DNA of 64,000 nucleotides from assembly GCA_017503285.1 (NCBI GenBank), contig JAFVTH010000022.1, positions 4,749-68,748 of the forward strand. The letters run 5' to 3'. Origin of the DNA: Clostridia bacterium. GTDB taxonomy: Bacteria > Bacillota > Clostridia > Oscillospirales > CAG-272. A model generated the notes under the pieces. It saw nothing but the letters and a program-made list of their open reading frames with translations, searched no databases and was not told the DNA's origin. Below, one piece after another: positions 1 through 19,399 of this stretch (its first letter is position 1; every line of letters begins with the position of its first letter). A program made the translations under genes and the position numbers.

Positions 1-731
1 TCAAACTCCGGTCCGTCAACGCACGCAAATACAGTTTTGCCACCAACGCTAAGACGACAGCCACCGCACATACCTGTACCGTCAATCATAATCGGGTTCA
101 TTGATGCAACGGTTTTTATGCCGTACTCCTTTGTAAGCAGGCACACAAACTTCATCATTGGCAAAGGTCCGATGGTAATAACCTCATCAAACTTATGCCC
201 TGCCTCAATAAGCTCCTTAAGTGCATTTGTAACAAGCCCCTGCTTGCCTGCTGTGCCGTCATCTGTCATAAGCACAAAATTGCTTGACGCTTTCTTGAAC
301 TCGTCCTCTAAAATAACAAGGTCCTTGCTTCTGAAGCCACAAATTGCGTGAACCTCACAGCCCAAGCCGTGGAGCTTTTTGGCAACCGGATATGCAATAG
401 CGCAGCCAACACCACCACCAACAACGGCAACCTTTTTAAGCCCATCTGTATGGGTAGCCTTGCCAAGCGGACCAACAAAGTCACAAAGCGCCTCGCCCTT
501 TTCCATATGGGCAAGCCTTTCGGTTGTTGCGCCAACTACTTGGAAAATGATTGTAACGCTACCGCGCTTTCTGTCAAAGTCTGCTATTGTGAGAGGAATC
601 CTCTCACCGTCCTCGTGAGTACGAAGAATTATAAACTGCCCCGGCTCTGCCTTTTTGGCAACCAAGGGAGCTTCTATATCCATAAGCACAACCGTTGGGT
701 TGAGAACCTTTTTCTTAAGTATCTTGTACAT
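1..731 (-). CDS. FAD/NAD(P)-binding oxidoreductase subunit of the sulfide/dihydroorotate dehydrogenase-like (NfnA / ferredoxin-NADP+ reductase alpha) family; 3' end runs off the window
   Basis: Absent from the ORF track because it is open at the window edge. Minus-strand translation from ATG 731..729 (GGAG 5 nt upstream) reads MYKILKKKVLNPTVVLMDIEAPLVAKKAEPGQFIILR...VAVVGGGVGCAIAYP...MIDGTGMCGGCRLSVGGKTVFACVDGPEF with no stop. It has a GGGxG fold and a C-terminal Cys cluster. Plus-strand ORFs 37..746 are shadow frames. Confidence 0.7.
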   Translation of the reverse strand, partial: MYKILKKKVLNPTVVLMDIEAPLVAKKAEPGQFIILRTHEDGERIPLTIADFDRKRGSVTIIFQVVGATTERLAHMEKGEALCDFVGPLGKATHTDGLKKVAVVGGGVGCAIAYPVAKKLHGLGCEVHAICGFRSKDLVILEDEFKKASSNFVLMTDDGTAGKQGLVTNALKELIEAGHKFDEVITIGPLPMMKFVCLLTKEYGIKTVASMNPIMIDGTGMCGGCRLSVGGKTVFACVDGPEF

Positions 732-740
732 ATCTACTCC

Positions 741-1577
741 TTATAGGTCGTAGGTAGCCTTTGAAAGCTTTTTGCTAAGCACCTGATAAAAGCTTCTTTC
801 TGCCACCTTGATAATTTTTGCGCATTTACTATGCTTCCTAATTCTAACCACGTCGCCGTCGTATATATCAATTGCGTTTTCGCCATCAATTTGGAGTGAT
901 GGGTTGCCAACCTTGGTAATGCTGTTTACGCTAACCTTGATTTCAAGAGTGTCGCCACCACCGATAACAATAGATGAACGCGGATAATATTTCGGAGAAA
1001 CAGGTGTTAGAACCATATTGTCCGCAGTCGGGGTCAAAACAGGTCCGCCGGCAGACATATTGTACGAGGTGGAGCCGGTTGGGGTTGCAACAATAAAGCC
1101 GTCACCAACTGCGGTTTGGGTAAGCGCACCGTTTATGTAAATCTCCAAGGAAAATGCCTTGAGCAAGGATGAACGATAAAACGCAGCCTCGTTAAGTGCA
1201 ACGAAGGAGCAAACCACCTTGTCCTCTCTTACAATCTCGCCCTCAATAAGAAGCCTGTTTTCAATGTTATATTTACCTTCAACAACGCTGGATATAGCTT
1301 CAATTGCTGTATCCGGATTACACTCGGTAAGATAGCCAAGGCTACCAAAATTAATGCCAAGCACAGGCGTGTTTACGGTACACATTTTTTTGCAGGCACG
1401 CAAAAGTGTACCGTCTCCACCAAGGACAAGAGCAAAATCTGCGCCCTCCCTTGGCATTTCATGCTCGGTTAGCACGGAAACCTCGTAGCCATTATTTATT
1501 AAAATTTCAGTTGCGATTTTAGAAAAGGAAACGCTTTGTTCTTTTAGGTAATTGGGTACTATAATTGCCTTCTTCAT
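741..1577 (-). CDS. nadK: NAD kinase
   Basis: 278 aa with LVLGGDGTLL and ATPTGSTSYN motifs. The stop lies 10 nt upstream of the next minus-strand gene. Confidence 0.9.
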   Translation of the reverse strand: MKKAIIVPNYLKEQSVSFSKIATEILINNGYEVSVLTEHEMPREGADFALVLGGDGTLLRACKKMCTVNTPVLGINFGSLGYLTECNPDTAIEAISSVVEGKYNIENRLLIEGEIVREDKVVCSFVALNEAAFYRSSLLKAFSLEIYINGALTQTAVGDGFIVATPTGSTSYNMSAGGPVLTPTADNMVLTPVSPKYYPRSSIVIGGGDTLEIKVSVNSITKVGNPSLQIDGENAIDIYDGDVVRIRKHSKCAKIIKVAERSFYQVLSKKLSKATYDL

Positions 1578-1654
1578 AGTAAATCCCCCTTAAACTGATT
1601 AATAAAAACATTTTAGCACGTTATATGCTATTTGTCAATTATAAAATAATATAA

Positions 1655-1678
1655 ATAAAAAAGGCGGTATAAACCGCC
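1655..1678 (-). terminator. Rho-independent terminator closing the cotJ operon
   Basis: Hairpin GGCGGT-ATAA-ACCGCC (1663..1678) followed by a T-run on the minus strand, 5 nt after the cotJC stop (1683..1685). Confidence 0.75.
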
Positions 1679-1682
1679 AATT

Positions 1683-1874
1683 TTATTTGTCAAATGCCGG
1701 GTTGTAGCCGTAGAAGTTCTTTGAATCCATATTGTCCTGTGCTATTCTTAGTGCGTCACAGAAGCGCTGATAGTGAACTACCTCGCGGGCACGAAGGAAC
1801 TTAATTGCGTCGCAAACATCCGGGTCGTCAACAAGCCTTAAAATGTTGTCGTAGGTTGTTCTTGCCTTTTGCTC
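1683..1874 (-). CDS. cotJC: cotJC 3' segment (C-terminal 63 codons of the spore-coat manganese-catalase-family protein CotJC), separated from its 5' segment by the 9.1-kb element
   Basis: Encodes EQKARTTYDNILRLVDDPDVCDAIKFLRAREVVHYQRFCDALRIAQ..., collinear with B. subtilis CotJC EEKARATYQWLIDISDDPDLNDSLRFLREREIVHSMRF. It has no credible start or RBS of its own. The TTG-initiated extension to 1910 in the ORF track lies in element DNA. Confidence 0.85.
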   Translation of the reverse strand, partial: EQKARTTYDNILRLVDDPDVCDAIKFLRAREVVHYQRFCDALRIAQDNMDSKNFYGYNPAFDK

Positions 1875-1900
1875 CGGTGCATTGTTACTAATGCAACCTA
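1875..1900. repeat. Element-side recombination arm (left junction), the inverted partner of 10935..10960
   Basis: cggtgcattgttactaatgcaaccta matches the reverse complement of 10935..10960 at 20 of 26 positions. It starts immediately after the TC dinucleotide at 1873..1874 and overlaps the recombinase stop codon (1898..1900). Confidence 0.7.
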
Positions 1901-3382
1901 AAAATTCCAAAAAATTGTAACGGGGACGATTTTTGTGCCCTTTACCCTTTTTTCAACTACTATTTTCTCAACAAGCATATCCACAAGCTCTCTTGTCAAA
2001 TGTGTCGGGTGTATATAACTATCCAAATTTAGCTCTTTTTCGCCTTTTTGGGTGGTTTTATAGACACGTCTTAGGCTTTTTTGCTCGTTTTCGATTTTTA
2101 TAAGCATTTGCAAAAACAAGTCCTTGCTAATTATTCCGTTTAGCTTATCCTCGTAAATTTGTCTGATTTTGTCCTCGTTTTTCTTAATTTTTTCTTCTGT
2201 GGTTTTGGTATGGCTAAGTGGTTTTATTTTTAACGAAAGCAGCCTTTTTTTGTCTAAATACCGGTCAAATATTTTGTTAAGCTCGGAAAGAACTGTTTTC
2301 TCCAAGCTATCAACCGATATAAACGAGCCTATGCATTCATTTTTAGAAATATAGTGAGTTGGGCATTTTAAGTATGTCTTGCCTTTTGACTTGGAGCTTT
2401 TTAGGGTATAGCCACAATGGGCACAGAAAACCTTTTTTGAAAATACACCTATTTCTCCTGCTTTTTGCGGTCTTGTTTTTTCTGAAAGCATTGCCTGAGC
2501 CTTTTCCCACACTATTTTGTCTATTATAGGTGGGTGGGTGTTTTTTACTATGTACCACCTGTCCCTTGGACGAGGCTTGTTTATCTTGCTTTTGTATGAC
2601 ACGCTGCCATACTTACCCTGCACCATATTTCCTATATACATTTGGTTGTTTAGAATCGATGAAATCGTGGAATACCGCCACAGGGTGCCACTTTTTTCAT
2701 TATTTGTCTTAAATTTTAGTCCCTTTTGTCTTTTGTATGATGAGGGGTTTGGCACACCTTTTTCGTTAAGTGTCTTTGCTATCTTGCTTTTGCCATAACC
2801 ACTGATATAAAGATTAAAAATCAGCCTTACTATCTCTGCTGCCTCCGGGTCGATTTTTAATTTTCCTCTTTCGTTTTCGTCCTTGAGGTAGCCATAAAGT
2901 GCAAAGGAGCCTATGTGTAAGCCGTTTTTCCTTTTAATATCAAACACGCTCTTTATGCTTTCTGACATATCCTCTAAATACCACTCGTTTACAAGCCCGT
3001 TTATTTGTCTTGCCTTTTTGTTGCCCTTTATTTCTGTATCTATGCCATCAACAATGCTCACAAAGCGAATGCCCCACAAGGGAAAAAGGTAGTGTATATA
3101 CCTTTCTACCAGCTCCATCTCCCTTGTGAAGCGTGACTGGGTCTTGCAAAGAATGATTTGAAAAAGTCCTTTCTTGGCATCCTCTATCATTTGATTAAAG
3201 GCAGGGCGATTGCGGTCTGCACCTGTATAGTCGTCATCGCTGTAGATTTTATATATTCCCCAGCCCTTTTTTTCTGCATAATCCCTAAGCATTTGCTTTT
3301 GATTTATAATACTTTCCGAGTCCTTTTCTTCTCTTTTATTCCTGTCCTCCTCGGAGAGTCTACAATAAATTGCGACCTGCAT
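1898..3382 (-). CDS. Large serine recombinase (resolvase/invertase N-domain + recombinase domain + zinc ribbon + coiled coil)
   Basis: 494 aa from ATG 3382 (RBS GAGGAAAG). Contains MQVAIYCRLSEEDRNK...SESIINQ (catalytic Ser motif), a conserved central recombinase region and a zinc ribbon CAHCGYTLKS..KCPTH. The track's TTG start at 3397 is less likely. Confidence 0.9.
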   Translation of the reverse strand: MQVAIYCRLSEEDRNKREEKDSESIINQKQMLRDYAEKKGWGIYKIYSDDDYTGADRNRPAFNQMIEDAKKGLFQIILCKTQSRFTREMELVERYIHYLFPLWGIRFVSIVDGIDTEIKGNKKARQINGLVNEWYLEDMSESIKSVFDIKRKNGLHIGSFALYGYLKDENERGKLKIDPEAAEIVRLIFNLYISGYGKSKIAKTLNEKGVPNPSSYKRQKGLKFKTNNEKSGTLWRYSTISSILNNQMYIGNMVQGKYGSVSYKSKINKPRPRDRWYIVKNTHPPIIDKIVWEKAQAMLSEKTRPQKAGEIGVFSKKVFCAHCGYTLKSSKSKGKTYLKCPTHYISKNECIGSFISVDSLEKTVLSELNKIFDRYLDKKRLLSLKIKPLSHTKTTEEKIKKNEDKIRQIYEDKLNGIISKDLFLQMLIKIENEQKSLRRVYKTTQKGEKELNLDSYIHPTHLTRELVDMLVEKIVVEKRVKGTKIVPVTIFWNF

Positions 3383-3479
3383 TTTTTCTTTCCTCAAGCG
3401 CCTTTATTTGCTCAATATACCATTTTGTAAGCTCCTGCTTTTTTAGCTCATTCTTGAAGATGTTTGTTACTTTTTCCAT
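3360..3479 (-). CDS. Hypothetical 39-aa ORF overlapping the recombinase start (possible directionality-factor candidate, or just 5' UTR)
   Basis: MEKVTNIFKNELKKQELTKWYIEQIKALEERKNAGRNLL. Its 3' end overlaps the recombinase start by 23 nt in another frame. No Shine-Dalgarno sequence is visible. A TAAAAT box ends 5 nt before the ATG, so only a leaderless mRNA would work. Confidence 0.2.
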   Translation of the reverse strand: MEKVTNIFKNELKKQELTKWYIEQIKALEERKNAGRNLL

Positions 3480-3504
3480 GTTACATTTTATGTTAGATAT
3501 GAAA

Positions 3505-3530
3505 GAAAAAAGACAGGAAAACCCTGTCTT
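3505..3530 (-). terminator. Rho-independent terminator of the STAND gene
   Basis: Minus strand GACAGG-gtttt-CCTGTC followed by TTTTTT, starting 6 nt after the stop at 3536. Confidence 0.75.
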
Positions 3531-3535
3531 TTTAA

Positions 3536-6500
3536 TTAATTTAGCTTTTCCTTTATCGTCTCTATAAGCTCTTGGATTTGCTTTTTTTGCTCCTGACAAG
3601 CAAGCTCAAGCACAGCTTCAGCCTCGCTATTAAACAATTGTAGATACTTTTTAGTGCCTTCGCTATCTATTTCATAAATTTGAATAAGCATTTCCCCGCA
3701 AGCGATTACCATATTGTGGCTTTGCGCTTCGTTTATTTGCGCATGCATCTTAGCAAGCATTATGACAGCCTCACAGGACTTGGTTCTTATATCTTCCTTT
3801 ATTAGCAAACCGTATTTATCTGCTGTGCCAACAAGTCTAACAGCATATTTTTCAGCAAGACGCATTTCCTCGCGCTTTAGTGCAAATTCAAGCCCCTCGT
3901 TGTAAGTATTTATAAGCTGTTCTAAGGCTTTATCGCTATTTGTTTTGATAACCAATAGCTCCATTGCCCTTGCTTTGCTTGCTATACAGCTTTGTCTTTT
4001 TTGCTTGTCGTGGAAATATTTACGTTTAGCATAGGCGTTCTTTAGTTTATCAAAGGTTTGTGCAAGTACATTGCAGTAATCCTCCGCCCCTTGCTCATCC
4101 ATAGCGTTTATAGTGCTTTCCACCTGTTCAAGGGCAAGCCTTGCATGCTTCAGAGCGTTAGGATAGTACATTTTTCTGTCATTTTCAGCTATAATTTCGA
4201 CAGTTGTTACAGCAAAATTAAAGGCTTTTTCTAAGTACTCCCACTCTTTTTCCTTATCTCCTGCATTTTTATATCCGTTTGCAATAGATAAAAGAATGTC
4301 GTAGACCTTCAAATCCTCATAGGTGCATTCTTCCCTTGCGTCGATTTCATATAGTTGTCCTATAAGATCAAGAATCTCCTCTTGCATATCTATGCCAAGT
4401 AGAGCTGTTTCCTTGTTTTCAGAGCTTGTGTATGCAGTTGCCATCTCAATCCTTGCATGTAATGGATAAAGAATTTTATCCTGCTCATCGGCAAAATCCA
4501 GGTTGTTTATTATTTCAAATGCCATTTCTGCCTCATCAAGGCGCTTTACATTTGAAGCGGCAGCTATCATTTCTCTGTAAATCTCGCTTTTTGCCTCTGG
4601 AGCAAGTATGCTTTTATCTCCAAGCATGCTAAGCATAGTGTCTGCTACATTTTCTAAAGCTTCCCTCTCGGCAATAATTGATACAGCTTCCTTCATGAGC
4701 TCAAAGCTATAATCGTATTTATCAGTTATTTTACAGAGTCTAATGATTTTTGCAAGCTTATAATTCATAAGTGCTATATCAAGTGGCTCTTCACCATCAA
4801 GTGCTTTAATGATTTCTCTTGCCCTTGATAAATAATCATAGGAATTTATGTAACTTGAAGAGCCATAGTATGTGCATCCAAGACGATAATATGTTATATA
4901 TTGTAGCTTTTTGTAAATATTATCATCAAAATCATTTACAAGCCCGTCTATAACTTGCCTTGCCTCCTTGCCTATCCTTTGGGCACGAAGATAGCCACGC
5001 ATAGTGTCGGTAAATATGCAAGCCTCCATATATCTTGCAAGAAGACAATATTTCGAAAGCCTTGATTCCTTGCTATTTTGACCTTCTAAAATTGCCATTC
5101 TTCTTTTGTAGGCTCTTTCTAACATTTCTCTGCCTTCATTACACTCAGAAATCATAAGAAAGCTGAGATTGCCAAAAATAGCGTTTTCATAATCGCAGTT
5201 TTGATAATCCTTTTCAAAGTTCTTTTCCTTGTCAAGACCAAAAACCGACCATTCAGTAGCTTCATTTTGACTATATTCAAATAGAGGTGACATGGCATCC
5301 ATCATCGCCTGGTCCCTATTCATAGCTCCACTTAAGTCGCCAAAATACATAAGTCCGATGACATTTATGCCTGCAAGAGCCTGCTTGCTTTTAGAGGTTT
5401 GGGTTTCGTCGCTTATTTTTTTATAAAGGCTTTTTGCCTTTTTATAGGCTTTTTTTGCATCATTATCCTTTATAGCGCCACCAAGCATTTTCGTAATTGA
5501 CGAAAAGATTGAAGCTTGGGAATCGTTTTCCTCGAACATACCCATACCGCACCTTGCAACCGCAGTGTTTACTATATCCTGATAAAGTGAGGCAAGCACA
5601 TCTTGTACCTCGTAGCTTACCACAGGCTTTGTGTCCATATACGCCTCAATTTCTTTGATTAGCTGGCTGGAAAAATCTACTTCAAGCGCGCTACTATACT
5701 GCTTTTCCTTTGACAAAATCGCACGCTCGGCAAGGGTCAATCTTCTATATATTTCCGCTTTTTTGATTAGATAACTTTCTTTTTCCAGATTTTTTTCATC
5801 AAGCAAAGCCACTGCCTTTAAAAAGTAATCCTTTGCGTTTTGACCTGCTTTTTGCTCACCCATACCGATGTAAGCCTCAAGCAAGGTATCCTTATCGTCG
5901 CTGTCTTCTAAAAGCTCAATTGCCTTTTGATAATATTCCGTTGCACACAAGCAATACTCTGTACCACTAAAGGTGTTATAGCCCTTTGCCACCCCAGTAT
6001 ATGCCCTTGCCAAGGCAGTTTTATTTTCCAGCCTCTGTGCATAGCTAACAGCTGTTTCATAGCTTATGCACATATCCTCCATTGAAAAGCCAAGGCTGAT
6101 TTCTGCACTTACATTTCCAAGTAAAATATAGGCATTTATCAAAAGCTCAAGCATTTTGTCATCCTGCGGCAATGATTCTATTAGCTTGATGCTTGCATAC
6201 AAGCTTCTCGCTCTTGCCTCAAGCTGGCTTTTTGTTTGTCCGAAATATGATGGTAATGTATTAACTAAGAATTCTAACACCTCATAGCTTGGATTTTCTT
6301 TGATGTAAGAGCAAAGCTCGTCAAGCCATACGCCCTCATCCTCCAAGCATTTTTCTGCTAAGGCAGATGCAACATATGAAAGCGATTCCTTGGTGGCTGA
6401 CACAATTTGCTCCACAAAGGATAATTTGTTATCAGCACAAATTGCGTGATAAGCACATTCTTGAGCCTTTAGTAAATCATCGTTTTCTAAGCTTGATATA

Positions 6501-8239
6501 TATTTCAAAAGCTGGGCGTGGATTTTACTCTTTTCCTCTGCGAGGGTATGGCACAAGCCCTGTCTAAAGCTACGGTGGACAAAGTCAACCCTACCATCTG
6601 CACGAATAAATAGTGAGTCTCTTAAATAGTGAATAAATGAAGAAAAATCAAGTCCGTTCCATTGGTCCTTAAGGAGAGCCTTTAGATCGCCTTGCCTCAA
6701 GCCATAGCGAGAAAAAGCAAGATATCTAGCACATTTTCCTATAAGCTCAGGGTTGATTCTTTCAGCTGAATCAAGAAACAGGCAAACGCTCATTTCCTCA
6801 AGGGTGTGTGGTACATTTTCAAGCAAGGATAATTGATGCTCCGTTATGGCTGACATACCATCACCAGCCTCACGAATACGCAAAAAGTCCTCCTCGTTCA
6901 TCATAACGAGGCGTTGCATTAACAAGTCAAGATAAAGTGGGTTTTTTGCCCCTGCTTTTCTCATAACGGCATTTTTTACCTCTTTGGAAAGCTCTCTGCG
7001 TCTTGCCTTTTCAATGCCTACTATTATTTCACCTATTTCTTCGTCGCTTGCGCATTTCCAAGTATATTTGGATAGGTGTGTGCTTGTCTTAAAATCGCTT
7101 GTGGCGGTTGAAACGAATTTTACATATTTTGATGTTTTGGTTGGAACAAAAATAAGCTGGTCACGGTTTTCGTCTGCTGAAAGCTGGTCAAGGCTATCTA
7201 CCAAAATAGCAACCATTTGCTTTTTAACTTGGCATTGGTTTGTTAAGAGGTATAGTCTATTTTTTAATTCCTCTATTGTGTTAATTTTTAGCTCTCTTGT
7301 AAGTCCAAGCTGTAATTCCAATGCTTCTACAATAACCTCTAAAACACCATATGCATTACTTGTTTTGGTGGTAAGAGACGAAAAAACAGGTATAGTTTTA
7401 TATCCCTTTTTCTCAAAAGCATCGTTATAATATGCCATTAGTGTGCTTTTACCACTTCCACTTTCGCCAAGAATTAAAGCGCCTGCATCATTTGCGTTTA
7501 TGTTTGAAAATAGCTTATCGGCTTCTTTCCTTTTTGCGTAAAAATGAGTTAGCTTGTCCTTGGCATATAGCCTATGCACCCTTAGTTCCTTTTCAATAGG
7601 AGTCAGGCTGGCTGTTGCCTGCCAGTCTGATTTTAGGATTGACAAAACATCCTCTGCCACCATTTTGGCAAAGGAATCTATTTGTGTAAGCTCATTATTT
7701 TCCCATTTTACCCTGTAGGTTTTTACAGAGCCACCACTAATTTTCATTATCCTTTGCTTAAGCTCCTTAAGCTTTTGATAATGATAGTCGTCCTCTTGCT
7801 TGTAAATATCAGGGATATCACCCTCGATTTCTCTAAAATAGAAAAGAGTTCGTCCGTTTTTTCTCTTTTCATTAAGAGCGCCATATTCTATTTCCAATGT
7901 GGTAACGCTCTTTTCCAAATCGTCAAGCTTGATACCATATCTTTTGGCAGCAGAGCCAACGATTTTTTCATCTGGAATCCAACCGTAGCGATATCCTAAA
8001 ATAACAACCATAGGTGGCTGACAATGGTCGATTTCGTCAAGGCAAACATTTAAAACCTTTGTTGAGCCTGCGTCACTTTCCATATCCTCGGTATTTACGC
8101 CCCAACGAAGGTCGCATATTTCCACGCTTTCCCCCCATTTTTTTGCTTCCTCATATAGAATAGGGAGAGTGATTTTTTGCAGAGCATCGCGCTCCTTATG
8201 CATATCCTTAAAGGTGCTTGATACAAATATTGTTTTCAT
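3536..8239 (-). CDS. NLR-like STAND NTPase: DUF4062-type N-terminal domain + NACHT-like P-loop NTPase + long TPR-like repeat region (1567 aa)
   Basis: The start is moved to ATG 8239 (GGAGG 8 nt upstream); the 25-codon extension in the track has no RBS. The N-terminus MKTIFVSSTFKDMHKERDAL...ICDLRWGV...CLDEIDHC..VVILGYRYGWIP matches the DUF4062 pattern seen at the N-terminus of NWD1-type NACHT proteins. Walker A is GESGSGKST (7442..7468) and Walker B is MVAILVDSLDQL (7181..7216, like the NACHT DGxDE motif). The C-terminal ~1100 aa are helical TPR-like repeats (for example ARAYTGVAKGYNTFSG..YYQKAIELLE). Confidence 0.75.
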   Translation of the reverse strand: MKTIFVSSTFKDMHKERDALQKITLPILYEEAKKWGESVEICDLRWGVNTEDMESDAGSTKVLNVCLDEIDHCQPPMVVILGYRYGWIPDEKIVGSAAKRYGIKLDDLEKSVTTLEIEYGALNEKRKNGRTLFYFREIEGDIPDIYKQEDDYHYQKLKELKQRIMKISGGSVKTYRVKWENNELTQIDSFAKMVAEDVLSILKSDWQATASLTPIEKELRVHRLYAKDKLTHFYAKRKEADKLFSNINANDAGALILGESGSGKSTLMAYYNDAFEKKGYKTIPVFSSLTTKTSNAYGVLEVIVEALELQLGLTRELKINTIEELKNRLYLLTNQCQVKKQMVAILVDSLDQLSADENRDQLIFVPTKTSKYVKFVSTATSDFKTSTHLSKYTWKCASDEEIGEIIVGIEKARRRELSKEVKNAVMRKAGAKNPLYLDLLMQRLVMMNEEDFLRIREAGDGMSAITEHQLSLLENVPHTLEEMSVCLFLDSAERINPELIGKCARYLAFSRYGLRQGDLKALLKDQWNGLDFSSFIHYLRDSLFIRADGRVDFVHRSFRQGLCHTLAEEKSKIHAQLLKYISSLENDDLLKAQECAYHAICADNKLSFVEQIVSATKESLSYVASALAEKCLEDEGVWLDELCSYIKENPSYEVLEFLVNTLPSYFGQTKSQLEARARSLYASIKLIESLPQDDKMLELLINAYILLGNVSAEISLGFSMEDMCISYETAVSYAQRLENKTALARAYTGVAKGYNTFSGTEYCLCATEYYQKAIELLEDSDDKDTLLEAYIGMGEQKAGQNAKDYFLKAVALLDEKNLEKESYLIKKAEIYRRLTLAERAILSKEKQYSSALEVDFSSQLIKEIEAYMDTKPVVSYEVQDVLASLYQDIVNTAVARCGMGMFEENDSQASIFSSITKMLGGAIKDNDAKKAYKKAKSLYKKISDETQTSKSKQALAGINVIGLMYFGDLSGAMNRDQAMMDAMSPLFEYSQNEATEWSVFGLDKEKNFEKDYQNCDYENAIFGNLSFLMISECNEGREMLERAYKRRMAILEGQNSKESRLSKYCLLARYMEACIFTDTMRGYLRAQRIGKEARQVIDGLVNDFDDNIYKKLQYITYYRLGCTYYGSSSYINSYDYLSRAREIIKALDGEEPLDIALMNYKLAKIIRLCKITDKYDYSFELMKEAVSIIAEREALENVADTMLSMLGDKSILAPEAKSEIYREMIAAASNVKRLDEAEMAFEIINNLDFADEQDKILYPLHARIEMATAYTSSENKETALLGIDMQEEILDLIGQLYEIDAREECTYEDLKVYDILLSIANGYKNAGDKEKEWEYLEKAFNFAVTTVEIIAENDRKMYYPNALKHARLALEQVESTINAMDEQGAEDYCNVLAQTFDKLKNAYAKRKYFHDKQKRQSCIASKARAMELLVIKTNSDKALEQLINTYNEGLEFALKREEMRLAEKYAVRLVGTADKYGLLIKEDIRTKSCEAVIMLAKMHAQINEAQSHNMVIACGEMLIQIYEIDSEGTKKYLQLFNSEAEAVLELACQEQKKQIQELIETIKEKLN

Positions 8240-8270
8240 ACAGATTCCTCCAAATGATGTCCTTATCTTA

Positions 8271-8299
8271 ATTATACAGGTTTTTTTCACATATTGCAA
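8271..8299 (-). promoter_or_regulatory. SigmaA-type promoter of the STAND gene
   Basis: Minus strand TTGCAA-17 nt-TATAAT, about 30 nt upstream of the RBS. Confidence 0.6.
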
Positions 8300-8300
8300 G

Positions 8301-8327
8301 AAAAAAAGCGACACGGGGGTCGCTTTT
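8301..8327 (-). terminator. Terminator of asnA
   Basis: GCGAC-CCCCGT-GTCGC hairpin with a T-run on the minus strand, directly after the asnA stop (8328..8330). Confidence 0.7.
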
Positions 8328-9335
8328 TTATAGTAGAACTATGTTGTTTTCCTTGCACACCTTATATGTTTCCTCGTCCCAAATGGAAACCTGCACCTCG
8401 CCAATATGCGCCTTGCCGAGAAGAAGCATGGAAAGACGAGATTGACCGATACCGCCACCCATTGTAAGCGGAAGCTCGCCATTTAAGAGCATTTTGTGGA
8501 ATGGAAGGCTTCTCCTTTCATCCTTGCCGGATGCGCTAAGCTGGTAGTCAAGTGATTTTTCATCAACTCTAATACCCATTGAGGAAATTTCAAAGGCGTG
8601 GCCGAGCAGCTCATTATAGAAAAGAATGTCGCCGTTTAGCTCCCAGTCATCATAGTCGGGGGCACGGTTGTCATGAGGCATACCGGACTTAAGCTTGCCA
8701 CCGATTTTCATAATGAAGGCTGTGCCAACCTCCTTTAGGTAAAGGTCCTCCCTTTCCTTAGAGGTTTTGCCGGGGTACATATCCTCAAGCTCCTGTGAGG
8801 TGATAAATGAAACCTCACGATTGAGATTTACATTAATTTGTGGGTAGGAGCATTTTAGAACATCAAGTGTTTCGCAAATTGCGCCAACGATGCATTTTAC
8901 CACCGTTTTCATATATTCTATGGTGCGTGTTTCGGTTGTTATAATCTTTTCCCAGTCCCATTGGTCGGTGTAGATGGAGTGGATATTATCCATTTCCTCA
9001 TCACGGCGAATAGCGTTCATATCTGTATAGATGCCCTCGCCTGCTGAAAAGCCGTATTCCTTAAGTGCCATACGCTTCCATTTCGCAAGAGAGTGAACGA
9101 TAACCGCGCTTTTACCGGTTTCCTTAATTTCAAAGTCAACTGCACGCTCAACACCGCTCAAATCGTCGTTAATACCCATATTTGGGTCAACGAACAATGG
9201 CGCAGATACACGCCTTAGGTTGAGGGCAAGGCAAAGCTTATCCTCGAAGGTCCTTTTAAGAGTGCCGATGGCTCTTTGTGTTTCATACATTGTAAGGGCA
9301 GATTTGTAGCCCTTGGGAATAATAATCTTGCTCAT
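8328..9335 (-). CDS. asnA: Aspartate-ammonia ligase (asparagine synthetase A)
   Basis: 335 aa from ATG 9335 (MSKIIIPKGYKS). Collinear with E. coli AsnA, including HSLAKWKR, DQWDWEK, APDYDDW, GGGIGQSRL and HIGEVQ. Confidence 0.9.
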   Translation of the reverse strand: MSKIIIPKGYKSALTMYETQRAIGTLKRTFEDKLCLALNLRRVSAPLFVDPNMGINDDLSGVERAVDFEIKETGKSAVIVHSLAKWKRMALKEYGFSAGEGIYTDMNAIRRDEEMDNIHSIYTDQWDWEKIITTETRTIEYMKTVVKCIVGAICETLDVLKCSYPQINVNLNREVSFITSQELEDMYPGKTSKEREDLYLKEVGTAFIMKIGGKLKSGMPHDNRAPDYDDWELNGDILFYNELLGHAFEISSMGIRVDEKSLDYQLSASGKDERRSLPFHKMLLNGELPLTMGGGIGQSRLSMLLLGKAHIGEVQVSIWDEETYKVCKENNIVLL

Positions 9336-9431
9336 AATATGTCCTTTATGCCTTACGGGAGTGAAACGAATCAGTTTTGGAACGGACAAAAAACCCGTCT
9401 TTGGCGTTAAAATTTTTTGAAATATTTTTAT

Positions 9432-9456
9432 AAAAGGGGCTTTGAAGCCCCCTTTG
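9432..9456 (-). terminator. Terminator of asnS
   Basis: GGGGC/GCCCC hairpin followed by TTTT on the minus strand, about 10 nt after the asnS stop. Confidence 0.6.
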
Positions 9457-9465
9457 TTTCTTGAA

Positions 9466-10842
9466 TTAGAGGCTACCTACTGTTCTTGGGAACAAAAGTG
9501 TATCTCTTATGTTTTGTACGCCTGTTAGATACATCATGGCTCTGTCAAAGCCAAGACCGAAACCACTATGTGGAACGCTGCCAAACTTTCTTGTATCAAG
9601 GTATTCCTTGTACATTTCAAGCGGCATGCCACGCTGTAGCATTGCACTTTCAAGCTTCTTGTAGTCCCATTCTCTTTCACTGCAGCCGATGATTTCGCGA
9701 ATGCCAGGAACTAAAAGGTCAGTTGCGGCAACGGTTTTTCCGTCGTCATTTTGCTTCATATAGAACGCCTTAATATCCTTTGGATAATCAACAACGAATA
9801 CAGGCTTCTTAAAGTATTCATCAGTTAGGTACTTCTCGTGCTCTGTCTGAAGGTCACAGCCCCACTCAACAGGATACTTAAAGTCCTTGCCACTCTTTTT
9901 GAGAACCTCAACAGCCTCGGTATAGGTAATTCTACCAAAGTCGCTATTTACAACGTTATTTAGCTTGTCAATAAGACCGGGCTCAACCCATTGATTAAAG
10001 AACTGAAGCTCCTCCGAGCAAACGTCCATAACATAGCGGATGATGTACTTAATAAAGTCCTCGGCGATTTCGATAATATCATCAATTTCAGCAAAGCAAA
10101 CCTCAGGCTCAATCTGCCAGAACTCTGCTGCGTGACGAGTTGTATTACTATGCTCTGCGCGGAAGGTTGGACCAAAGGTGTAAATCCTACCAAGACCCAT
10201 AGCAGCCATTTCGCCCTCTAGCTGAGCAGAAACGGTAAGACCTGCCTTTTGACCGAAGAAGTCGTTTTGATAATACTCCTCCTCGCTCTTAAAATCGGTT
10301 GTCCAAGGCTGAGTTGTTACACGGAACATCTCGCCTGCGCCCTCACAGTCACTACCTGTGATGATTGGTGCGTGAACATATTTATAATCGTTTTCGTTAA
10401 AGTACTTGTGTACAGCAAAGGAAAGCTGGTTACGAACTGCAAAAACAGCCTCGAAGTATCTTGCCCTTGGACGAAGATGTGGGATTGTACGAAGGAACTC
10501 AAGAGTATGTCTCTTCTTCTGGAGAGGATAATCCTGTGGACACTCGCCCAAAACCTTAATATCAGTAACGGTGATTTCATATCCGTTCTTTTCAGATACG
10601 ATAAACTTGCCCTCAACACGGAGTGAGGCACCAACCACCATTGCATTTTTCATATCATCAAGCTGGAGATTTTCCTTTTCCAAAATGAGCTGAATATTCT
10701 TAAGGCAGGTGCCATCATTAAGCTCAATAAAGGAAATAGTTTTAGAATCTCTTGCTGTTCTAACCCAACCACAAATAACTACGCTTTGGTCAATATAATC
10801 CTGTGGGTTTTGGAAAAGCTTTTTTATGTCTGTATGCTTCAT
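9466..10842 (-). CDS. asnS: Asparaginyl-tRNA synthetase (class IIb)
   Basis: 458 aa from ATG 10842 (MKHTDIKKLF). An N-terminal OB-fold anticodon-binding region is followed by a class II core (FRAE..TTRHAAEFWQIEPE, GFGLGFDR). ATG 10860 is an alternative start. Confidence 0.9.
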   Translation of the reverse strand: MKHTDIKKLFQNPQDYIDQSVVICGWVRTARDSKTISFIELNDGTCLKNIQLILEKENLQLDDMKNAMVVGASLRVEGKFIVSEKNGYEITVTDIKVLGECPQDYPLQKKRHTLEFLRTIPHLRPRARYFEAVFAVRNQLSFAVHKYFNENDYKYVHAPIITGSDCEGAGEMFRVTTQPWTTDFKSEEEYYQNDFFGQKAGLTVSAQLEGEMAAMGLGRIYTFGPTFRAEHSNTTRHAAEFWQIEPEVCFAEIDDIIEIAEDFIKYIIRYVMDVCSEELQFFNQWVEPGLIDKLNNVVNSDFGRITYTEAVEVLKKSGKDFKYPVEWGCDLQTEHEKYLTDEYFKKPVFVVDYPKDIKAFYMKQNDDGKTVAATDLLVPGIREIIGCSEREWDYKKLESAMLQRGMPLEMYKEYLDTRKFGSVPHSGFGLGFDRAMMYLTGVQNIRDTLLFPRTVGSL

Positions 10843-10883
10843 TTTGAACATAGCCCCCATAAATATTTATAATTAATATGATT

Positions 10884-10912
10884 ATTATACAACTTTTATA
10901 TTTACAAGTCAA
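10884..10912 (-). promoter_or_regulatory. SigmaA-type promoter of asnS, inside the element
   Basis: Minus strand TTGACT-17 nt-TATAAT. It sits between the right junction and asnS. Confidence 0.65.
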
Positions 10913-10934
10913 CAACTTTTTTTATTTTTTGCAT

Positions 10935-10960
10935 AAGCTTGCATTTGTAGCTATGCACCA
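10935..10960. repeat. Element-side recombination arm (right junction), the inverted partner of 1875..1900
   Basis: aagcttgcatttgtagctatgcacca. Its reverse complement, tggtgcatagctacaaatgcaagctt, matches 1875..1900 at 20 of 26 positions. It ends immediately before the TC at 10961..10962. Confidence 0.7.
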
Positions 10961-11367
10961 TCTGCTGCTAAGTCCTCGTTTAAGTCTGTTATAACATCGC
11001 CCTTGGACTGGAATTGAGCTGCGCTGTATGGGAAGCCACTGGCTGCAACCGGGTATATGCCTGTTGTGTGGTCTACAAAGTAGGTGTCAAAGCCACTCTT
11101 TACTATTTCGTCAGGGGTTAGGTTTCTTGTAAGCTGATAGAGGATTGCGGATATCATCTCAAAGTGCGCAAGCTCCTCCGTGCCAACATCCGTTAGGATT
11201 CCAACCACCTTGGAGTATGGCATTGCTATTCTTTGAGTAAGGTAGCGAAGCGATGCTCCGATTTCTCCATCAGGTCCACCTAATTGGCTGACTATAATTT
11301 GAGCATATTTTGGGTTTGGATTTTTAATGTTTACAGGGTATTGAAGCTTTTTCTCGTATTGCCACAT
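10961..11367 (-). CDS. cotJC: cotJC 5' segment (N-terminal 135 codons plus the first 2 nt of the split Glu codon); as integrated, the frame runs 3 codons into element DNA to a TAG at 10951
   Basis: MWQYEKKLQYPVNIKNPNPKYAQIIVSQLGGPDGEIGASLRYLTQR...LTDVGTEELAHFEMI...SKGDVITDLNEDLAA is collinear with B. subtilis CotJC MWVYEKKLQYPVKV...LTDIGTEEFAHLEMI...AKGDPIADLYEDIAA. RBS GGAGG. Confidence 0.9.
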
Positions 11368-11370
11368 ATA

Positions 11371-11637
11371 TTATTTCCTCCCCTCGTCGTTTTGCCATGG
11401 CCATGGTCCCTCTGTCCATTGCCAGCTTGTTGCATCCTCCGGCATTGTAATAGGTCCATATTTTTGCTCATATTCTGCCCTTGCCCTTGCCTCAAGCTTT
11501 TTGTACTTGTTGTAAAAGTCCAAGGCAGCCTTGGAGTCCGGGTAGGCATCAAGATACAAAAGCGCCTCGTATACAGCAAAGGAATAGCTTTGAAGCTCTC
11601 TTAGGCATCTTTGTCTGGTTCTGTCATTTTTCATCAT
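11371..11637 (-). CDS. cotJB: Spore coat protein CotJB
   Basis: 88 aa with LQSYSFAVYEALLYLDAYPDSKAAL and the C-terminal WQWTEGPWPWQ signature. Strong RBS GGGGAGGGG. Confidence 0.85.
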   Translation of the reverse strand: MMKNDRTRQRCLRELQSYSFAVYEALLYLDAYPDSKAALDFYNKYKKLEARARAEYEQKYGPITMPEDATSWQWTEGPWPWQNDEGRK

Positions 11638-11928
11638 TTACAGACACCCCTCCCCACCATTTTGTCTTTTGTTGCCACAGCCACTGCGCATAAAGGGCTT
11701 GTGAAGCTGGGAAAAGATTGTGCCATTGACTAATGCAATTTCAGGGTCGTAAAGACTACAAAAATCCTGTCTTACAGGGTAAACCATAGCAAGATGGGGC
11801 GACCCTGTGTTTGAATTTGTATGATTTTCGCACTTTGACTCTGCTTTAGCAATAAATGCAGAAAAGGCATTAAAATCTGCTTCTCTTTGTCTTCTTGACA
11901 TAGAATCAAGTCTCATATTGTTCTCCAT
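11638..11928 (-). CDS. cotJA: Spore coat-associated protein CotJA
   Basis: LAMVYPVRQDFCSLYDPEIALVNGTIFSQLHKPF matches the CotJA signature. The start is ATG 11928, or more likely ATG 11916 (GGAG 6 nt upstream). The 176-aa form in the track, reaching 12168, crosses the divergent promoter region and is rejected. Confidence 0.8.
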   Translation of the reverse strand: MENNMRLDSMSRRQREADFNAFSAFIAKAESKCENHTNSNTGSPHLAMVYPVRQDFCSLYDPEIALVNGTIFSQLHKPFMRSGCGNKRQNGGEGCL

Positions 11929-11952
11929 TCTGAGCCTTTTCGGCTCTTTAAT

Positions 11953-11979
11953 AGCATATGACAAAATAAGACAATATTC
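11953..11979 (-). promoter_or_regulatory. Candidate sigmaE-type (mother-cell) promoter of cotJABC
   Basis: Minus strand GAATATT-12 nt-CATATGCT, compared with the B. subtilis sigmaE consensus kmATATT / CATACAmT. cotJ is sigmaE-dependent in B. subtilis. The spacer may be a little short. Confidence 0.35.
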
Positions 11980-12091
11980 TACTTTCTTTTTATTTATACC
12001 GGTAAAATTGTTGTAATTTTTTTCTTTTCTCTTCCTTTTTTTGTTTTTTGGTGCTATAATGACCTTATATATTCTAAAAAGGAGCTTACTT

Positions 12092-13447
12092 ATGAATATA
12101 GTTATTATCGGCCTTGGCACCATTGGCGAAACAGTCCTTAAAAGCCTTTCCGGCGAGGGACACACCATAACAATTATTGACGGAAACGAAAATAAGGTTG
12201 AGTCCCTAATTGAAAAGTATGATATTTTCGGCGTGGTTGGTAACGGCGCTTGTATGGATATTCAAAGGGAGGCCGGTGTTGAAAACGCTGACCTTGCTAT
12301 TGTTCTTACCAACAGTGATGAGCTTAATGTTTTTGCTTGTCTTGTTGCAAAAAGGCTTGGTGTGCAAAACACAATTGCTCGTGTAAGAAACCCAGACTAT
12401 CAGCAGCAAATTATAGATATGAAGGACACCCTTGGCCTTTCTATGATTGTAAATCCTGAGATGGAAACAGCACAGGAAATTTTTAATCTTATAAGCCTAC
12501 CCTCCATTGAGCAGGTTGAGCGTTTTGCTAAGGGCAAGGCACTTTTGGTTGAAATTTATCTTGAAAAGGGCTGCTCTCTTATCGGCGAAAGCCTTATTAC
12601 CATGTCAAAAAAGGTAAATACAAGGGTGCTTATCTGTGCTGTACAGCGCGGTGACCAGGTTGTTATACCTTCCGGTAACTTTGTGTTTGAAGAGGGTGAC
12701 TGCGTACACTTTACCTCTGATGCAAGCTCTCTTGACGACTTTTTAAGAGAGGTTAACATTGTTAGCTCCCCTCTTAAGAGAATTATGATTATTGGTGGTG
12801 GCAGAATCGGCTTTTATCTTGCCGAAATGCTTTCCTCTAAAAAATACGAAATCAAGCTTATGGCAAGCAATCTTGAGGAGGCTGAGGAGCTGGCGGAAAC
12901 TCTGCCTAAGGTTACTGTTATCCATGGTAATGGCACTCAGCACGACTTATTGATTGAAGAGGGCATTGAGGCTATGGACGCCTTTGTTGCTCTTACAAAA
13001 ATCGATGAGGAGAATATGATTGCCTCAATGTTTGCAAATAAGATGAAGGTAAAAAAGACTATCTCTCAAATTAAGAACGATAGCCTTTACGATATGCTTA
13101 GCGAGCTTGATATCGACAACAACGTTTCTCCTAAGAACATTGTTGCAAACAAAATTATAAGCTATGTGCGCGCCCTTGCAAACAAGCGTGGCAGTAACAT
13201 ACTTACACTTTATCGTCTTGTTAACAACCGGGTTGAGGCCCTTGAATTTCTTGCTAAAAAAGAGGAGAAGTTCTTTAACAAGCCTCTTAGAACTATTAAA
13301 ACAAAGGATAACTGCCTTGTTGCCTGCATTATCAGAGATGGCAAGGTTATTATCCCTGACGGTAATTCTTCAATTCAGCTTGGAGATAATGTTATCGTCG
13401 TTACCACACACAAAAGCTTTGATGACTTAAATGATATTCTTGATTAA
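12092..13447 (+). CDS. trkA: Trk system K+ uptake protein TrkA (double RCK)
   Basis: 451 aa from ATG 12092 (AAGGAG RBS). Two NAD-binding motifs, IIGLGTIG and IIGGGRIG, each followed by an RCK_C region. Confidence 0.85.
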   Translation: MNIVIIGLGTIGETVLKSLSGEGHTITIIDGNENKVESLIEKYDIFGVVGNGACMDIQREAGVENADLAIVLTNSDELNVFACLVAKRLGVQNTIARVRNPDYQQQIIDMKDTLGLSMIVNPEMETAQEIFNLISLPSIEQVERFAKGKALLVEIYLEKGCSLIGESLITMSKKVNTRVLICAVQRGDQVVIPSGNFVFEEGDCVHFTSDASSLDDFLREVNIVSSPLKRIMIIGGGRIGFYLAEMLSSKKYEIKLMASNLEEAEELAETLPKVTVIHGNGTQHDLLIEEGIEAMDAFVALTKIDEENMIASMFANKMKVKKTISQIKNDSLYDMLSELDIDNNVSPKNIVANKIISYVRALANKRGSNILTLYRLVNNRVEALEFLAKKEEKFFNKPLRTIKTKDNCLVACIIRDGKVIIPDGNSSIQLGDNVIVVTTHKSFDDLNDILD

Positions 13448-13458
13448 GGTGGCTATTT

Positions 13459-14988: not shown

Positions 14989-14999
14989 AATTTCATAAG

Positions 15000-15027
15000 G
15001 GAACGGCAAAAAGCCGTTCCTTTTTTT
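15000..15027 (+). terminator. Terminator after trkH
   Basis: GGAACGGC-aaaaa-GCCGTTCC plus T7. Confidence 0.8.
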
Positions 15028-15123
15028 GTTTTTTTGTTTACTTTTTTTGATTTTTGTGCTACACTTAACTTGTCTAAATAAACATTGCTTGTTTTTCAAG
15101 CTTACTTATAATAAGGAATTTTA

Positions 15124-16452: not shown

Positions 16453-16461
16453 GGAGATAAT

Positions 16462-17118
16462 ATGAAAACTAAATCCTTTTTGATAATCGGCTTAGGCCGC
16501 TTTGGTAAGCATCTTGCACACCGTTTAATTGATATGGGGCATGATGTTATGATCGTTGACAAGGACCCGGCTATTGTTGATACATTAATTGATATTTGTC
16601 CCGACGCAAGCATTGGAGATTGCACCAATGAAAGCGTTTTGAAAAGTCTTGACGTTGGCGCATTTGATGTTTGCTTCGTTACCATCGGCGAGGACTTTGA
16701 ATCATCGCTAATTATTACAACATATCTGAAAAAGTACGGTGCTAAATGCGTTGTTGCAAAGGCAAATCAAACTATACAGGCAGATTTGCTTAAGCGAATA
16801 GGTGCAGACGAAATTCTTTTCCCGGAAAAAGAAATGGCTGATAAAATTGCCGTAAGATACGATTCCGGAAATATCTTTGACTATATTCCTCTTACCGGAG
16901 AATATTCAATTTACGAATTGGCTATTTTGAAGGATTGGATCGGCAAAACTATTATTGAGGTTAATGTAAGAAAAAATTATCAACTAAATATAATAGCAAT
17001 AAAGACAGGCACTTCTCTAAATCCTGTGCCCGGCGCTGATTATGTTTTCACAAAGGACGACCACATAGTTGTAATAGGAAAGCTTGCGGATGTAGCAAAA
17101 ATCACTTCAAAGCAGTAA
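16462..17118 (+). CDS. ktrA: KtrA/TrkA-type RCK regulatory subunit
   Basis: 218 aa; IIGLGRFGKHLA Rossmann motif plus an RCK_C region. Confidence 0.85.
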   Translation: MKTKSFLIIGLGRFGKHLAHRLIDMGHDVMIVDKDPAIVDTLIDICPDASIGDCTNESVLKSLDVGAFDVCFVTIGEDFESSLIITTYLKKYGAKCVVAKANQTIQADLLKRIGADEILFPEKEMADKIAVRYDSGNIFDYIPLTGEYSIYELAILKDWIGKTIIEVNVRKNYQLNIIAIKTGTSLNPVPGADYVFTKDDHIVVIGKLADVAKITSKQ

Positions 17119-17122
17119 AAAA

Positions 17123-17149
17123 AGAGGCTTCAAAATGAAGCCTCTTTTT
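17123..17149. terminator. Bidirectional terminator between ktrA and gap
   Basis: AGAGGCTTC-aaaat-GAAGCCTCT flanked by an A-run and a T-run. Confidence 0.8.
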
Positions 17150-17159
17150 GTTTGTTTAA

Positions 17160-18346: not shown

Positions 18347-18375
18347 TTGACATCTTGAATTTTCTTTGTTATACT
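18347..18375 (+). promoter_or_regulatory. SigmaA-type promoter of holB
   Basis: TTGACA-17 nt-TATACT. Confidence 0.6.
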
Positions 18376-19386: not shown

Positions 19387-19399
19387 AAGGCAGTTTAAT

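Follow-up and report, generated by a model that had tools for sequence, protein, structure and literature searches.

The window analysed here is a 64,000-nucleotide stretch of a gut Clostridia metagenome-assembled genome (MAG; contig JAFVTH010000022.1, positions 4,749 to 68,748 of the forward strand). It contains a gene for a 1567-residue protein that is probably a single-gene, NLR-like abortive-infection receptor with an NAD+ glycohydrolase (NADase) effector. The protein combines an N-terminal TIR-like domain (DUF4062, also called NIR or TeTIR), a central STAND NTPase module and a C-terminal alpha-solenoid, which is the putative sensor. Its gene is carried by an element inserted in the sporulation gene cotJC. 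Homology, catalytic residues, STAND fold, expression signals, variable genomic context and the fast change of the sensor come from the present analysis, and enzymology and phage triggers from the literature on relatives; we infer the ligand, oligomerisation and phenotype.

The coding sequence occupies positions 3536..8239, with the ATG at 8239 and the stop codon at 3536-3538; here and below, the features of the gene and of its element lie on the minus strand. Retranslation agrees with the open reading frame (ORF) described in a first-pass annotation of the same DNA, as the frame is open from this ATG and yields 1567 residues plus the stop. The product is identical to a public-database protein named [quoted passage not shown] (P0001). 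The N-terminal motifs noted earlier, IFVSSTFKDMHKERDAL (residues 4-20), DLRWGV (43-48), CLDEIDHC (66-73) and ILGYRYGWIP (80-89), were all located in the translation.

When the gene was first annotated, the biochemical output of DUF4062 was described as uncharacterised, a statement overtaken by four papers from 2026. These characterise the domain, renamed NIR or TeTIR, as a TIR-like NADase producing ADP-ribose (ADPR) and nicotinamide. Osinski et al. (bioRxiv 10.64898/2026.05.01.722283) identified DUF4062 as a TIR-like NADase, described the Swarozyc defence system (KpSwz, catalytic E97) and showed that human TEP1, the crystal structure of which was solved, is also an NADase (E1008). Le Mouellic et al. 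(bioRxiv 10.64898/2026.09.04.749371) renamed the domain NIR and reported PsAvs2, an Avs2 protein of NIR-STAND-TPR organization, and the Evangelion system was described by Ibarra-Chavez et al. (2026). Hornebeck et al. (bioRxiv 10.64898/2026.09.21.753143) defined TeTIR domains, placed them immediately N-terminal to NACHT ATPases that continue into WD40 or TPR repeats, mapped essential residues by mutagenesis and mentioned some bacterial members in passing. NIR domains deplete NAD+ and give phage protection in PsAvs2, Vulcan, Vesta, Swarozyc and Evangelion, the equivalent glutamate being required in all. The triggers of these same-effector relatives are phage proteins, for example terminase, portal and lambdap79.

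The N-terminal domain of the window protein spans residues 1-215 (7595..8239). Its DUF4062 assignment, made at first annotation, is upheld by hidden Markov model (HMM) search, in which Pfam PF13271 covers residues 4-95 (E 3.6e-14) and scores 53.2 bits against a gathering cut-off of 24.7. When the first 230 residues were compared with the PDB, residues 4-201 aligned with the human TEP1 domain (11gz_A, E 1.2e-18). A profile of 19 N-domains of the family matched the TEP1 domain at E 7.5e-29 over the whole ~200 residues, RWG loop and extra elements included, and was only marginally similar to KpSwz (E 0.3, beta-A motif alone). Because the TEP1 match is strong and the KpSwz match marginal, the clade was assigned to an extended, TEP1-like type of NIR domain. 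In an AlphaFold2 (AF2) model, in which the domain was modelled jointly with the STAND module, beta and alpha elements alternate (predicted local distance difference test score, pLDDT, 60-95), and fold comparison of this two-domain model (residues 1-640) places two plant TIR-NLRs, RPP1 and WRR4A, among its top matches. One member of the family alignment carries an extension of ~340 residues preceding DUF4062, and all others begin with MKTIFVSSTF.

Residue conservation was assessed across an alignment of 83 homologues. TEP1 was brought into register by subtracting 893 from its residue numbers, whereby E1008 becomes chain position 115; this offset was checked on ten published residues (F902, S905, R908, R914, R942, W943, R954, C959, R976 and E1008). 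The experimentally defined catalytic glutamate of the family (TEP1 E1008, KpSwz E97, PsAvs2 E108) aligns with E116 of the window protein (SVTTLE116IEYG; codon at 7892..7894), which is invariant in the homologues and is the predicted catalytic residue. The other residues essential in TEP1 correspond to F5 (F902), R17 (R914, substrate-binding), R45 (R942, within the DLRWG "RWG loop"), C66 (C959) and R84 (R976). All six are present, and each is invariant or at least 90% conserved. The alignment displaces the candidate catalytic residue proposed at first annotation, E16 of the KERD motif (E16-R17 codons at 8189..8194). The motif remains relevant because R17 aligns with TEP1 R914, mutation of which abolishes activity, and it can be placed in the active-site region because E16 is adjacent to R17 and, as are R17 and D18, invariant. 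No role for E16 itself is assigned in the papers characterising DUF4062. For mutation work, the residues of interest are consequently E116 as the catalytic residue and R17, R45, C66 and R84 as substrate-binding residues, not E16.

Conservation of the active site also bears on whether the effector does something other than simply deplete NAD+. The domain might generate an NAD-derived signal, cleave another N-glycosidic substrate (nucleotides or NADP+) or act as an oligomerisation scaffold. Such diversity has precedents in the literature: NADase activity is lacking in NWD1, NWD2 and NPHP3, and a diversification of NIR domains like that of TIR domains is considered possible. Moreover, the fold family takes in nucleotide hydrolases of the MilB/DNPH type, the N-domain of PsAvs2 was originally annotated as a cytidine monophosphate (CMP) hydrolase, and TEP1 cleaves NADP+ as well. 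We nevertheless consider a different output unlikely, since all six residues needed for NAD+ hydrolysis by TEP1 are retained, all bacterial NIR systems tested to date convert NAD+ into ADPR and nicotinamide until it is depleted, and no signal-reading partner gene is conserved beside the homologues.

The STAND NTPase module extends over residues ~230-640 (6320..7552) and comprises a P-loop core, a helical domain and a winged-helix arm, recognised by fold and motifs. The Walker A motif GESGSGKST (residues 258-266; 7442..7468) lies exactly where it was first annotated. The Walker B motif ILVDSLDQL (residues 345-353; 7181..7207) had also been correctly recognised, but its interval (7181..7216) ran 9 nucleotides too far. 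Residues G261, G263 and K264 of Walker A, D348 of Walker B and H555 of the FVHRSF motif are invariant in the homologues. The two Walker motifs conform to the patterns GxxxxGK[ST] and hhhhD plus a further acidic residue. We take the DxxDQL form of Walker B and the winged-helix FVHRSF motif, with its invariant histidine, to be NACHT-like.

Pfam NTPase profiles all scored below threshold in the window protein (nSTAND1, 24.7 versus 27.1; NACHT, 17.2 versus 26.7; NPHP3_N, 17.0 versus 24.8); its homologues carry Pfam NPHP3_N, nSTAND1, nSTAND5 and sometimes NACHT. An NCBIfam search of the 1567-residue protein gave no match. Comparison of the STAND region sequence with the PDB returned nothing under E 0.1, and the module is classified by fold comparison only. 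The AF2 model of residues 1-640, built from 83 sequences, is a confident one, with a pLDDT of 88 and a predicted template-modelling score (pTM) of 0.82. Its Foldseek matches include Apaf-1 (E 6e-9), RPP1, WRR4A, Avs3, NRC4/NRC resistosomes, CED-4, EfAvs5, MalT and NOD2, and the middle module is on this basis assigned the STAND/NLR fold. The NLR-like succession of effector, STAND module and repeats that had been read from the sequence is borne out by Pfam DUF4062, the AF2 models and the Foldseek matches. A MalT-like transcription regulator was considered and dropped, as Pfam revealed no DNA-binding domain.

Membership of the Avs or bNACHT antiphage proteins, to whose architecture the first annotation had pointed, is not supported for these families as currently modelled, given the sub-threshold NACHT score and the lack of a significant PADLOC match. 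PADLOC v2 models searched against the protein and seven homologues produced P-loop noise only, the best Avs match being Avs2 in one homologue (E 3.9e-4). For this reason, the protein was not assigned to Avs1-5 or to any PADLOC family.

The C-terminal region (residues 641-1567; 3539..6319) is modelled as a TPR-like alpha-solenoid. The AF2 model of residues 600-1567 is all-helical, with 45 helices (pLDDT 75). Its Foldseek matches are TPR proteins (Ctr9, Ski3, IFT-A, Naa15 and subunits of APC/C) at a template-modelling (TM) score of ~0.2, and no Avs sensor was matched. Pfam detected no TPR family in the 1567-residue protein at E<=1, and hydrophobicity autocorrelation of the sensor gave no clean 34-residue TPR period. 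The first-pass annotation had described about 1100 residues of TPR-like repeats. The all-helical, TPR-like character stands, by the model and its Foldseek matches; the length does not. The solenoid measures ~930 rather than 1100 residues because ~240 residues (~400-640) form the two arms, helical and winged-helix, of the STAND module. "TPR-like solenoid" is a fair label for the modelled residues 641-1567. A search with the last 927 residues against 1.84 billion representative proteins returned 4 matches, none real outside the protein's own cluster, and in consequence no trigger can be inferred from relatives. Orphan sensors are to be expected, as a 2026 survey of STAND proteins (PMC13581612) reports at least 90 defence-associated families and 684 sensor clusters.

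The rate at which the sensor changes was assessed by comparing the window with related elements, region by region, in terms of pairwise amino acid identity and of nonsynonymous (dN) and synonymous (dS) divergence. Between orthologous alleles the sensor is 43% identical, whereas flanking and co-cargo genes (TrkA, AsnRS, AsnA and NADK) are 94-98% identical (dN 0.014-0.035; dS 0.44-0.83). The element recombinase is 84% identical (dN 0.095; dS 0.805) and the NIR domain ~90% identical (dN 0.04; dS 0.75). Within the sensor, dN reaches 0.435 in residues 641-1200 (dS 2.634 in residues 901-1200, saturated in residues 641-900) and 0.716 in residues 1201-1567, where dS is saturated and not computable. 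In the last third of the sensor, dN is close to the dS of the neighbouring genes. Within the gene, pairwise dN/dS ranges from 0.05 to 0.16 wherever it is computable (<0.2), and dS is saturated elsewhere; positive selection is for this reason not claimed, and only the dN contrast with the flanks is used. The fast change may reflect near-neutral evolution, diversifying pressure or the exchange of sensor modules.

Sensor variation is also apparent across the wider family. The full-length protein used as query retrieved 907 proteins, one of which, from a Clostridia MAG, is identical. Two proteins (P0002 and P0003) are 56-57% identical over the full length. In the other listed homologues, similarity is confined to the N-terminal 40-70% of the query, with 32-47% identity in the aligned part; their C-termini differ, many with clear repeats of TPR_12 type. 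This is a large clade in uncultured gut Clostridia, in which an NPHP3/TEP1-like N-domain and a STAND module are joined to highly variable sensors.

Distant homologues have no conserved neighbours. For instance, a Gastranaerophilales homologue (P0006, locus L006) adjoins a second STAND gene, a CHAT-TPR protein and a UvrD helicase, and another (L089) adjoins a TIR-LRR gene. The homologue in L007 is found inside an element with polyvalent-protein domains and a SNF2 helicase, that in L091 is near a type IV secretion system coupling protein, and that in L008 occupies a chromosomal spot. P0085, which has strong Pfam NPHP3_N and TPR_NPHP3 matches, lies among six TIR_2 genes, one of them a TIR-HD fusion, within 20 kb (L090; ERZ28573941 scaffold_267, 1..20125), in what looks like a dense TIR island. 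In L006, the second STAND gene (4522..7503) is NPHP3_N-like and devoid of DUF4062, and the CHAT gene by P0006 (15447..18002) encodes a TPR-CHAT protease. A tblastn search with residues 1-640 found nothing in phage genomes and two distant DUF4062 proteins in plasmids. A location of homologues mainly in housekeeping neighbourhoods had been named at first annotation as evidence that would speak against a conflict function; the distant homologues were found in variable islands and mobile elements. Because neighbourhoods vary and no PADLOC model fits the eight members searched, the pattern is that of a conflict gene outside current defence catalogues.

The gene is flanked by expression signals of its own. 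A sigma-A-type promoter-like site, TTGCAA-17-TATAAT (8271..8299), which matches 10 of 12 consensus positions, is positioned immediately after the asnA terminator and is followed by a GGAGG ribosome-binding site (RBS; 8247..8251). An intrinsic-terminator-like stem-loop with a T-run (3507..3533) lies directly past the stop codon. Both the promoter and the terminator had been annotated earlier, and both were recovered by scanning. Promoter-consensus matches are no rarer than chance in this AT-rich region (27 observed versus 23.4 expected); both hexamers and the RBS are invariant across three diverged alleles, and the spacer varies. These promoter-like and terminator-like signals suggest that the gene is vegetatively expressed.

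The gene had been assigned to a mobile element, an assignment substantiated by the split of cotJC, a serine recombinase, attachment (att) sites and empty sites. The cotJC-intervening element (1873..10962; 9,088 bp) is bounded by GA crossover dinucleotides at 1873-1874 and 10961-10962, and a large serine recombinase of 494 residues is encoded at one element end (1898..3382, from the ATG at 3382; Pfam Resolvase, Recombinase, Zn_ribbon_recom and DUF4368). cotJC, a gene of the Mn-catalase family, is split. Its 5' fragment (residues 1-135; 10961..11367; Pfam Mn_catalase profile positions 1-150 of 284) stops at 10961 and runs into three element-encoded codons and a stop. The 3' fragment (EQKARTTYDNIL...AFDK, then the stop codon; 1683..1872, or 1683..1874 with the crossover GA) is located downstream of the recombinase. 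At both junctions, GA is found beside TGCA-rich arms. When the host halves are joined at GA (...GCAGCA-GA-GCAAAAGGCA...), the sequence reads DLAAEQKAR; the reconstructed attB contains GCAGCAGAGCAAAAGGCA and sits in the conserved AAEQKAR codons of cotJC. The reconstructed attP contains AATGCACCGGATGGTGCAT. Joining the element halves produces a 46-bp imperfect palindrome, TTGCATTAGTAACAATGCACC-GGAT-GGTGCATAGCTACAAATGCAA, the 21-bp arms of which match at 18 of 21 positions around GGAT; this is the form that would be expected of a serine-integrase attP.

The rejoined CotJC has 198 residues and is up to 94% identical, over residues 1-198, to the products of uninterrupted genes at 80 loci. These derive from related gut MAGs (Oscillospiraceae, Clostridia), mostly from ruminants. 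Between the reconstructed attB and that of relatives, 2-6 of 36 positions differ. The site is empty at more than 20 loci of related MAGs (L011-L032), where the TrkH-TrkA-cotJABC-NADK (NAD kinase) locus has no insert. The same element carries P0002 and P0003 at the same cotJC site (L001-L005), and the att cores are conserved in L001 and L004. Recombinase orthologues occupy the same position in L004, L005, L092 and L093, and in a further MAG (L092/L093) this site is marked by a recombinase of 71% identity. Presumably, sporulating mother cells lose the element by excision and the forespore lineage retains it. Exact-pattern searches for the attP junction, the mark of an excised circle, found none in JGI metagenome contigs or IMG/VR, and a similar search for the attR junction found none in metagenome contigs; these empty searches of public contigs neither support nor oppose excision.

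In addition to the STAND gene, the element carries asnA, which encodes aspartate-ammonia ligase (8328..9389; Pfam AsnA), and asnS, which encodes an AsnRS-like class II tRNA synthetase (9466..10860; Pfam tRNA-synt_2 and anticodon OB fold). Identity between alleles is 93-98% for these two genes, which are not the usual cargo of intervening elements. A glutamine-dependent asparagine synthase is encoded in the host as well (28882..30780). Just upstream of asnS and still within the element, about 50 nucleotides from the attL crossover, the promoter TTGACT-17-TATAAT (10884..10912) comes near the consensus, with a match at 11 of 12 positions. Rfam identified no family over the whole window, and hence no T-box upstream of asnS.

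A small ORF of 39 residues (MEKVTNIFKNELKKQELTKWYIEQIKALEERKNAGRNLL; 3360..3479) overlaps the start of the recombinase gene in another frame and is conserved in the alleles. It is identical at 37 of 39 residues in L004 (from 5658) and L005, and nearly all of the few nucleotide differences leave its amino acid sequence unchanged. This stretch of ~130 nucleotides is more conserved than the flanking coding genes, and a diverged version (~60% identical by eye) accompanies the 71%-identical recombinase of L092/L093. The ORF is a candidate recombination directionality factor.

The organization of the element raises the question of whether the STAND gene serves its carrier rather than the cell, acting in addiction or exclusion by sensing that the element is lost or that competing mobile elements enter. 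Such a role would account for the constant place of the gene next to the recombinase, in an element that is maintained vertically. The STAND and recombinase genes are adjacent in both alleles with spanning contigs, those of the window and of P0002 (L004, L005), and the asnS-asnA-STAND order is kept in the window and with P0003 (L001, L002). Moreover, the element carries genes on which the host might depend (asnS and asnA), and some homologues reside within conjugative or polyvalent-protein elements. In contrast, most homologues are unlinked to recombinases, phage proteins (terminase, portal, lambdap79) are the triggers of relatives that share the effector, and an orphan sensor that is hypervariable is more in keeping with a rapidly evolving target from outside than with an unchanging cue of the element itself. 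A role of this kind is quite improbable.

The location in an operon of spore-coat genes, on an element that the mother cell presumably loses by excision, would also be in line with a developmental or regulatory STAND protein tied to sporulation, which might for instance promote NAD+ collapse and lysis of the mother cell and have no part in immunity. Many bacterial STAND proteins are regulators, and MalT is among the fold matches. We regard this possibility as highly improbable. No DNA-binding or other output domain besides the NADase was detected by Pfam, the promoter looks sigma-A-like rather than sigma-E/K-like, and homologues occur in Gastranaerophilales and in unrelated contexts. Furthermore, close host relatives with an intact cotJC lack the gene altogether, which indicates that it is dispensable for sporulation.

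As an abortive-infection receptor, the protein would be expected to rest as an autoinhibited monomer, presumably, by analogy, bound to ADP. The ~930-residue solenoid would bind an invader-derived protein, most likely a conserved structural or replication protein of a phage. Binding may then promote nucleotide exchange in the NACHT-like STAND module and oligomerisation, as fold and motif homology suggest. Oligomerisation would cluster the N-terminal NIR/TeTIR domains into active NAD+ glycohydrolases that hydrolyse NAD+ through E116, and the resulting collapse of NAD+ would arrest or kill the infected cell ahead of phage release. The original proposal of an antiphage or conflict sensor is supported by the homology to an antiphage NADase effector family and, indirectly, by the variable islands and the fast sensor.

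Several observations weigh against this assignment. The protein and its clade are known from sequence alone. No PADLOC model matches the protein or the seven homologues, which do not belong to a recognised Avs or bNACHT family. A catalytic glutamate alone is no guarantee of activity, as purified human NWD1 and NWD2 are without NADase activity according to the literature. The sensor gives generic TPR-protein fold matches only, at the low TM score reported above, and dN/dS within the gene is low or, where dS is saturated, not computable. In the genome under study, no defence island surrounds the gene. Its companions as cargo are asnA and asnS, and the 64 kb around it are housekeeping. Finally, the element looks vertically inherited within a small clade, and the attP junction was absent from the metagenome and virus collections searched.

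Elsewhere in the window, a 937-residue ORF with no Pfam family at E<=1e-5 (55913..58726, minus strand) lies amid housekeeping genes, which include those for MetRS, AsnB, PEPCK, GH3, an ABC transporter and threonine synthase.

Both the architecture described here and the chemistry of the effector have already been published. Modestly new are the clade of gut Clostridia whose N-domain is TEP1-like, the orphan sensor and the carriage by a cotJC element. Characterised so far in human TEP1 and in systems from proteobacteria and staphylococci, the NIR/TeTIR effector is now seen to head a clade of gut Clostridia as well. The protein offers a test case for the phage component recognised by the orphan solenoid sensor of an anaerobe, for bacterial TeTIR-NACHT-TPR proteins as a possible source of the animal family, and for a possible role of the small gene-intervening elements of spore formers in carrying immune genes. 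In a more far-reaching reading, this would be the first documented case of an immune receptor conserved as cargo of a sporulation gene-intervening element, an NLR-like NADase kept in the forespore germline and removed from the mother cell, together with asnS and asnA, upon rebuilding of cotJC. The sensor would evolve near-neutrally while the rest of the element is conserved, and the clade might be the closest bacterial relative of animal TeTIR-NACHT-TPR proteins of the TTC41/NPHP3 type. This combined picture is unlikely as a whole. Were excision timing and immunity functionally linked, the element would give soma and germline different immune states; for example, a suicide effector might be silenced or unleashed in the terminal mother cell, or the spore lineage guarded from spore-borne phages.

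Among known intervening elements, skin in sigK and gin in gerE (PMC5595907) are alike in that a large serine recombinase element splits a sporulation gene expressed in the mother cell, and gin is, as the window element, small and not prophage-like. cotJC has been reported once before as a target, of a skin-like element in Laceyella sacchari (bioRxiv 10.1101/2022.02.25.481979). Precise excision restoring the frame is in principle shared with skin and gin, although excision in the window is predicted from sequence. The window element differs from these elements and from that of Laceyella in its lineage, Oscillospiraceae-like gut MAGs, in its cargo of an NLR-like NADase gene, asnA and asnS, and in its candidate directionality factor, the 39-residue ORF that overlaps the recombinase start.

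Among the animal proteins of the TeTIR-NACHT-repeat family (TEP1, NWD1, NWD2, TTC41 and NPHP3), TEP1 is the one with which the whole N-domain aligns, at the family-profile E-value given above, and whose essential residues it shares. TTC41 and NPHP3 resemble the window protein in domain order, the N-domain immediately preceding a NACHT-like ATPase and TPR-like repeats coming next. For NPHP3, the likeness extends to the homologues, which match Pfam NPHP3_N, and to P0085, which additionally matches TPR_NPHP3. In contrast to the TEP1 group, the window protein is prokaryotic, has no TROVE/vWA extension and no WD40 C-terminus, and has a presumed antiphage role instead of an association with vaults or cilia.

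Swarozyc, Evangelion and Vulcan share the effector family and the catalytic glutamate, and are single-gene abortive-infection systems often found on mobile elements. Unlike the window protein, they have no STAND NTPase; their NIR domains are fused to non-STAND sensor regions and are activated by direct assembly on portal or via a short AUX/HEAT domain. Avs1-24 and bNACHT proteins (Gao et al. 2022; PMC13581612; Kibby et al. 2023) follow the same logic of an effector, a STAND module and a large fold-recognising sensor, and Avs3 and EfAvs5 are among the structural matches of the window protein, which differs from them in having no HMM-level PADLOC membership and a sub-threshold Pfam NACHT score.

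PsAvs2 of Pseudomonas chlororaphis (10.64898/2026.09.04.749371) has the same three-part NIR-STAND-TPR architecture, its catalytic glutamate E108 corresponding to E116 here. It is a single-gene system that abortively depletes NAD+ to ADPR and nicotinamide upon sensing a phage protein, and the window protein is likened to it by sequence and architecture. The two differ in that the PADLOC Avs2 model has no match in the window protein (one homologue, E 4e-4), in the STAND module, which is here NPHP3_N/nSTAND1/NACHT-like, in the sensor, which is here an orphan solenoid, and in the host, which is a proteobacterium for PsAvs2 and a gut Clostridia MAG for the protein described here.

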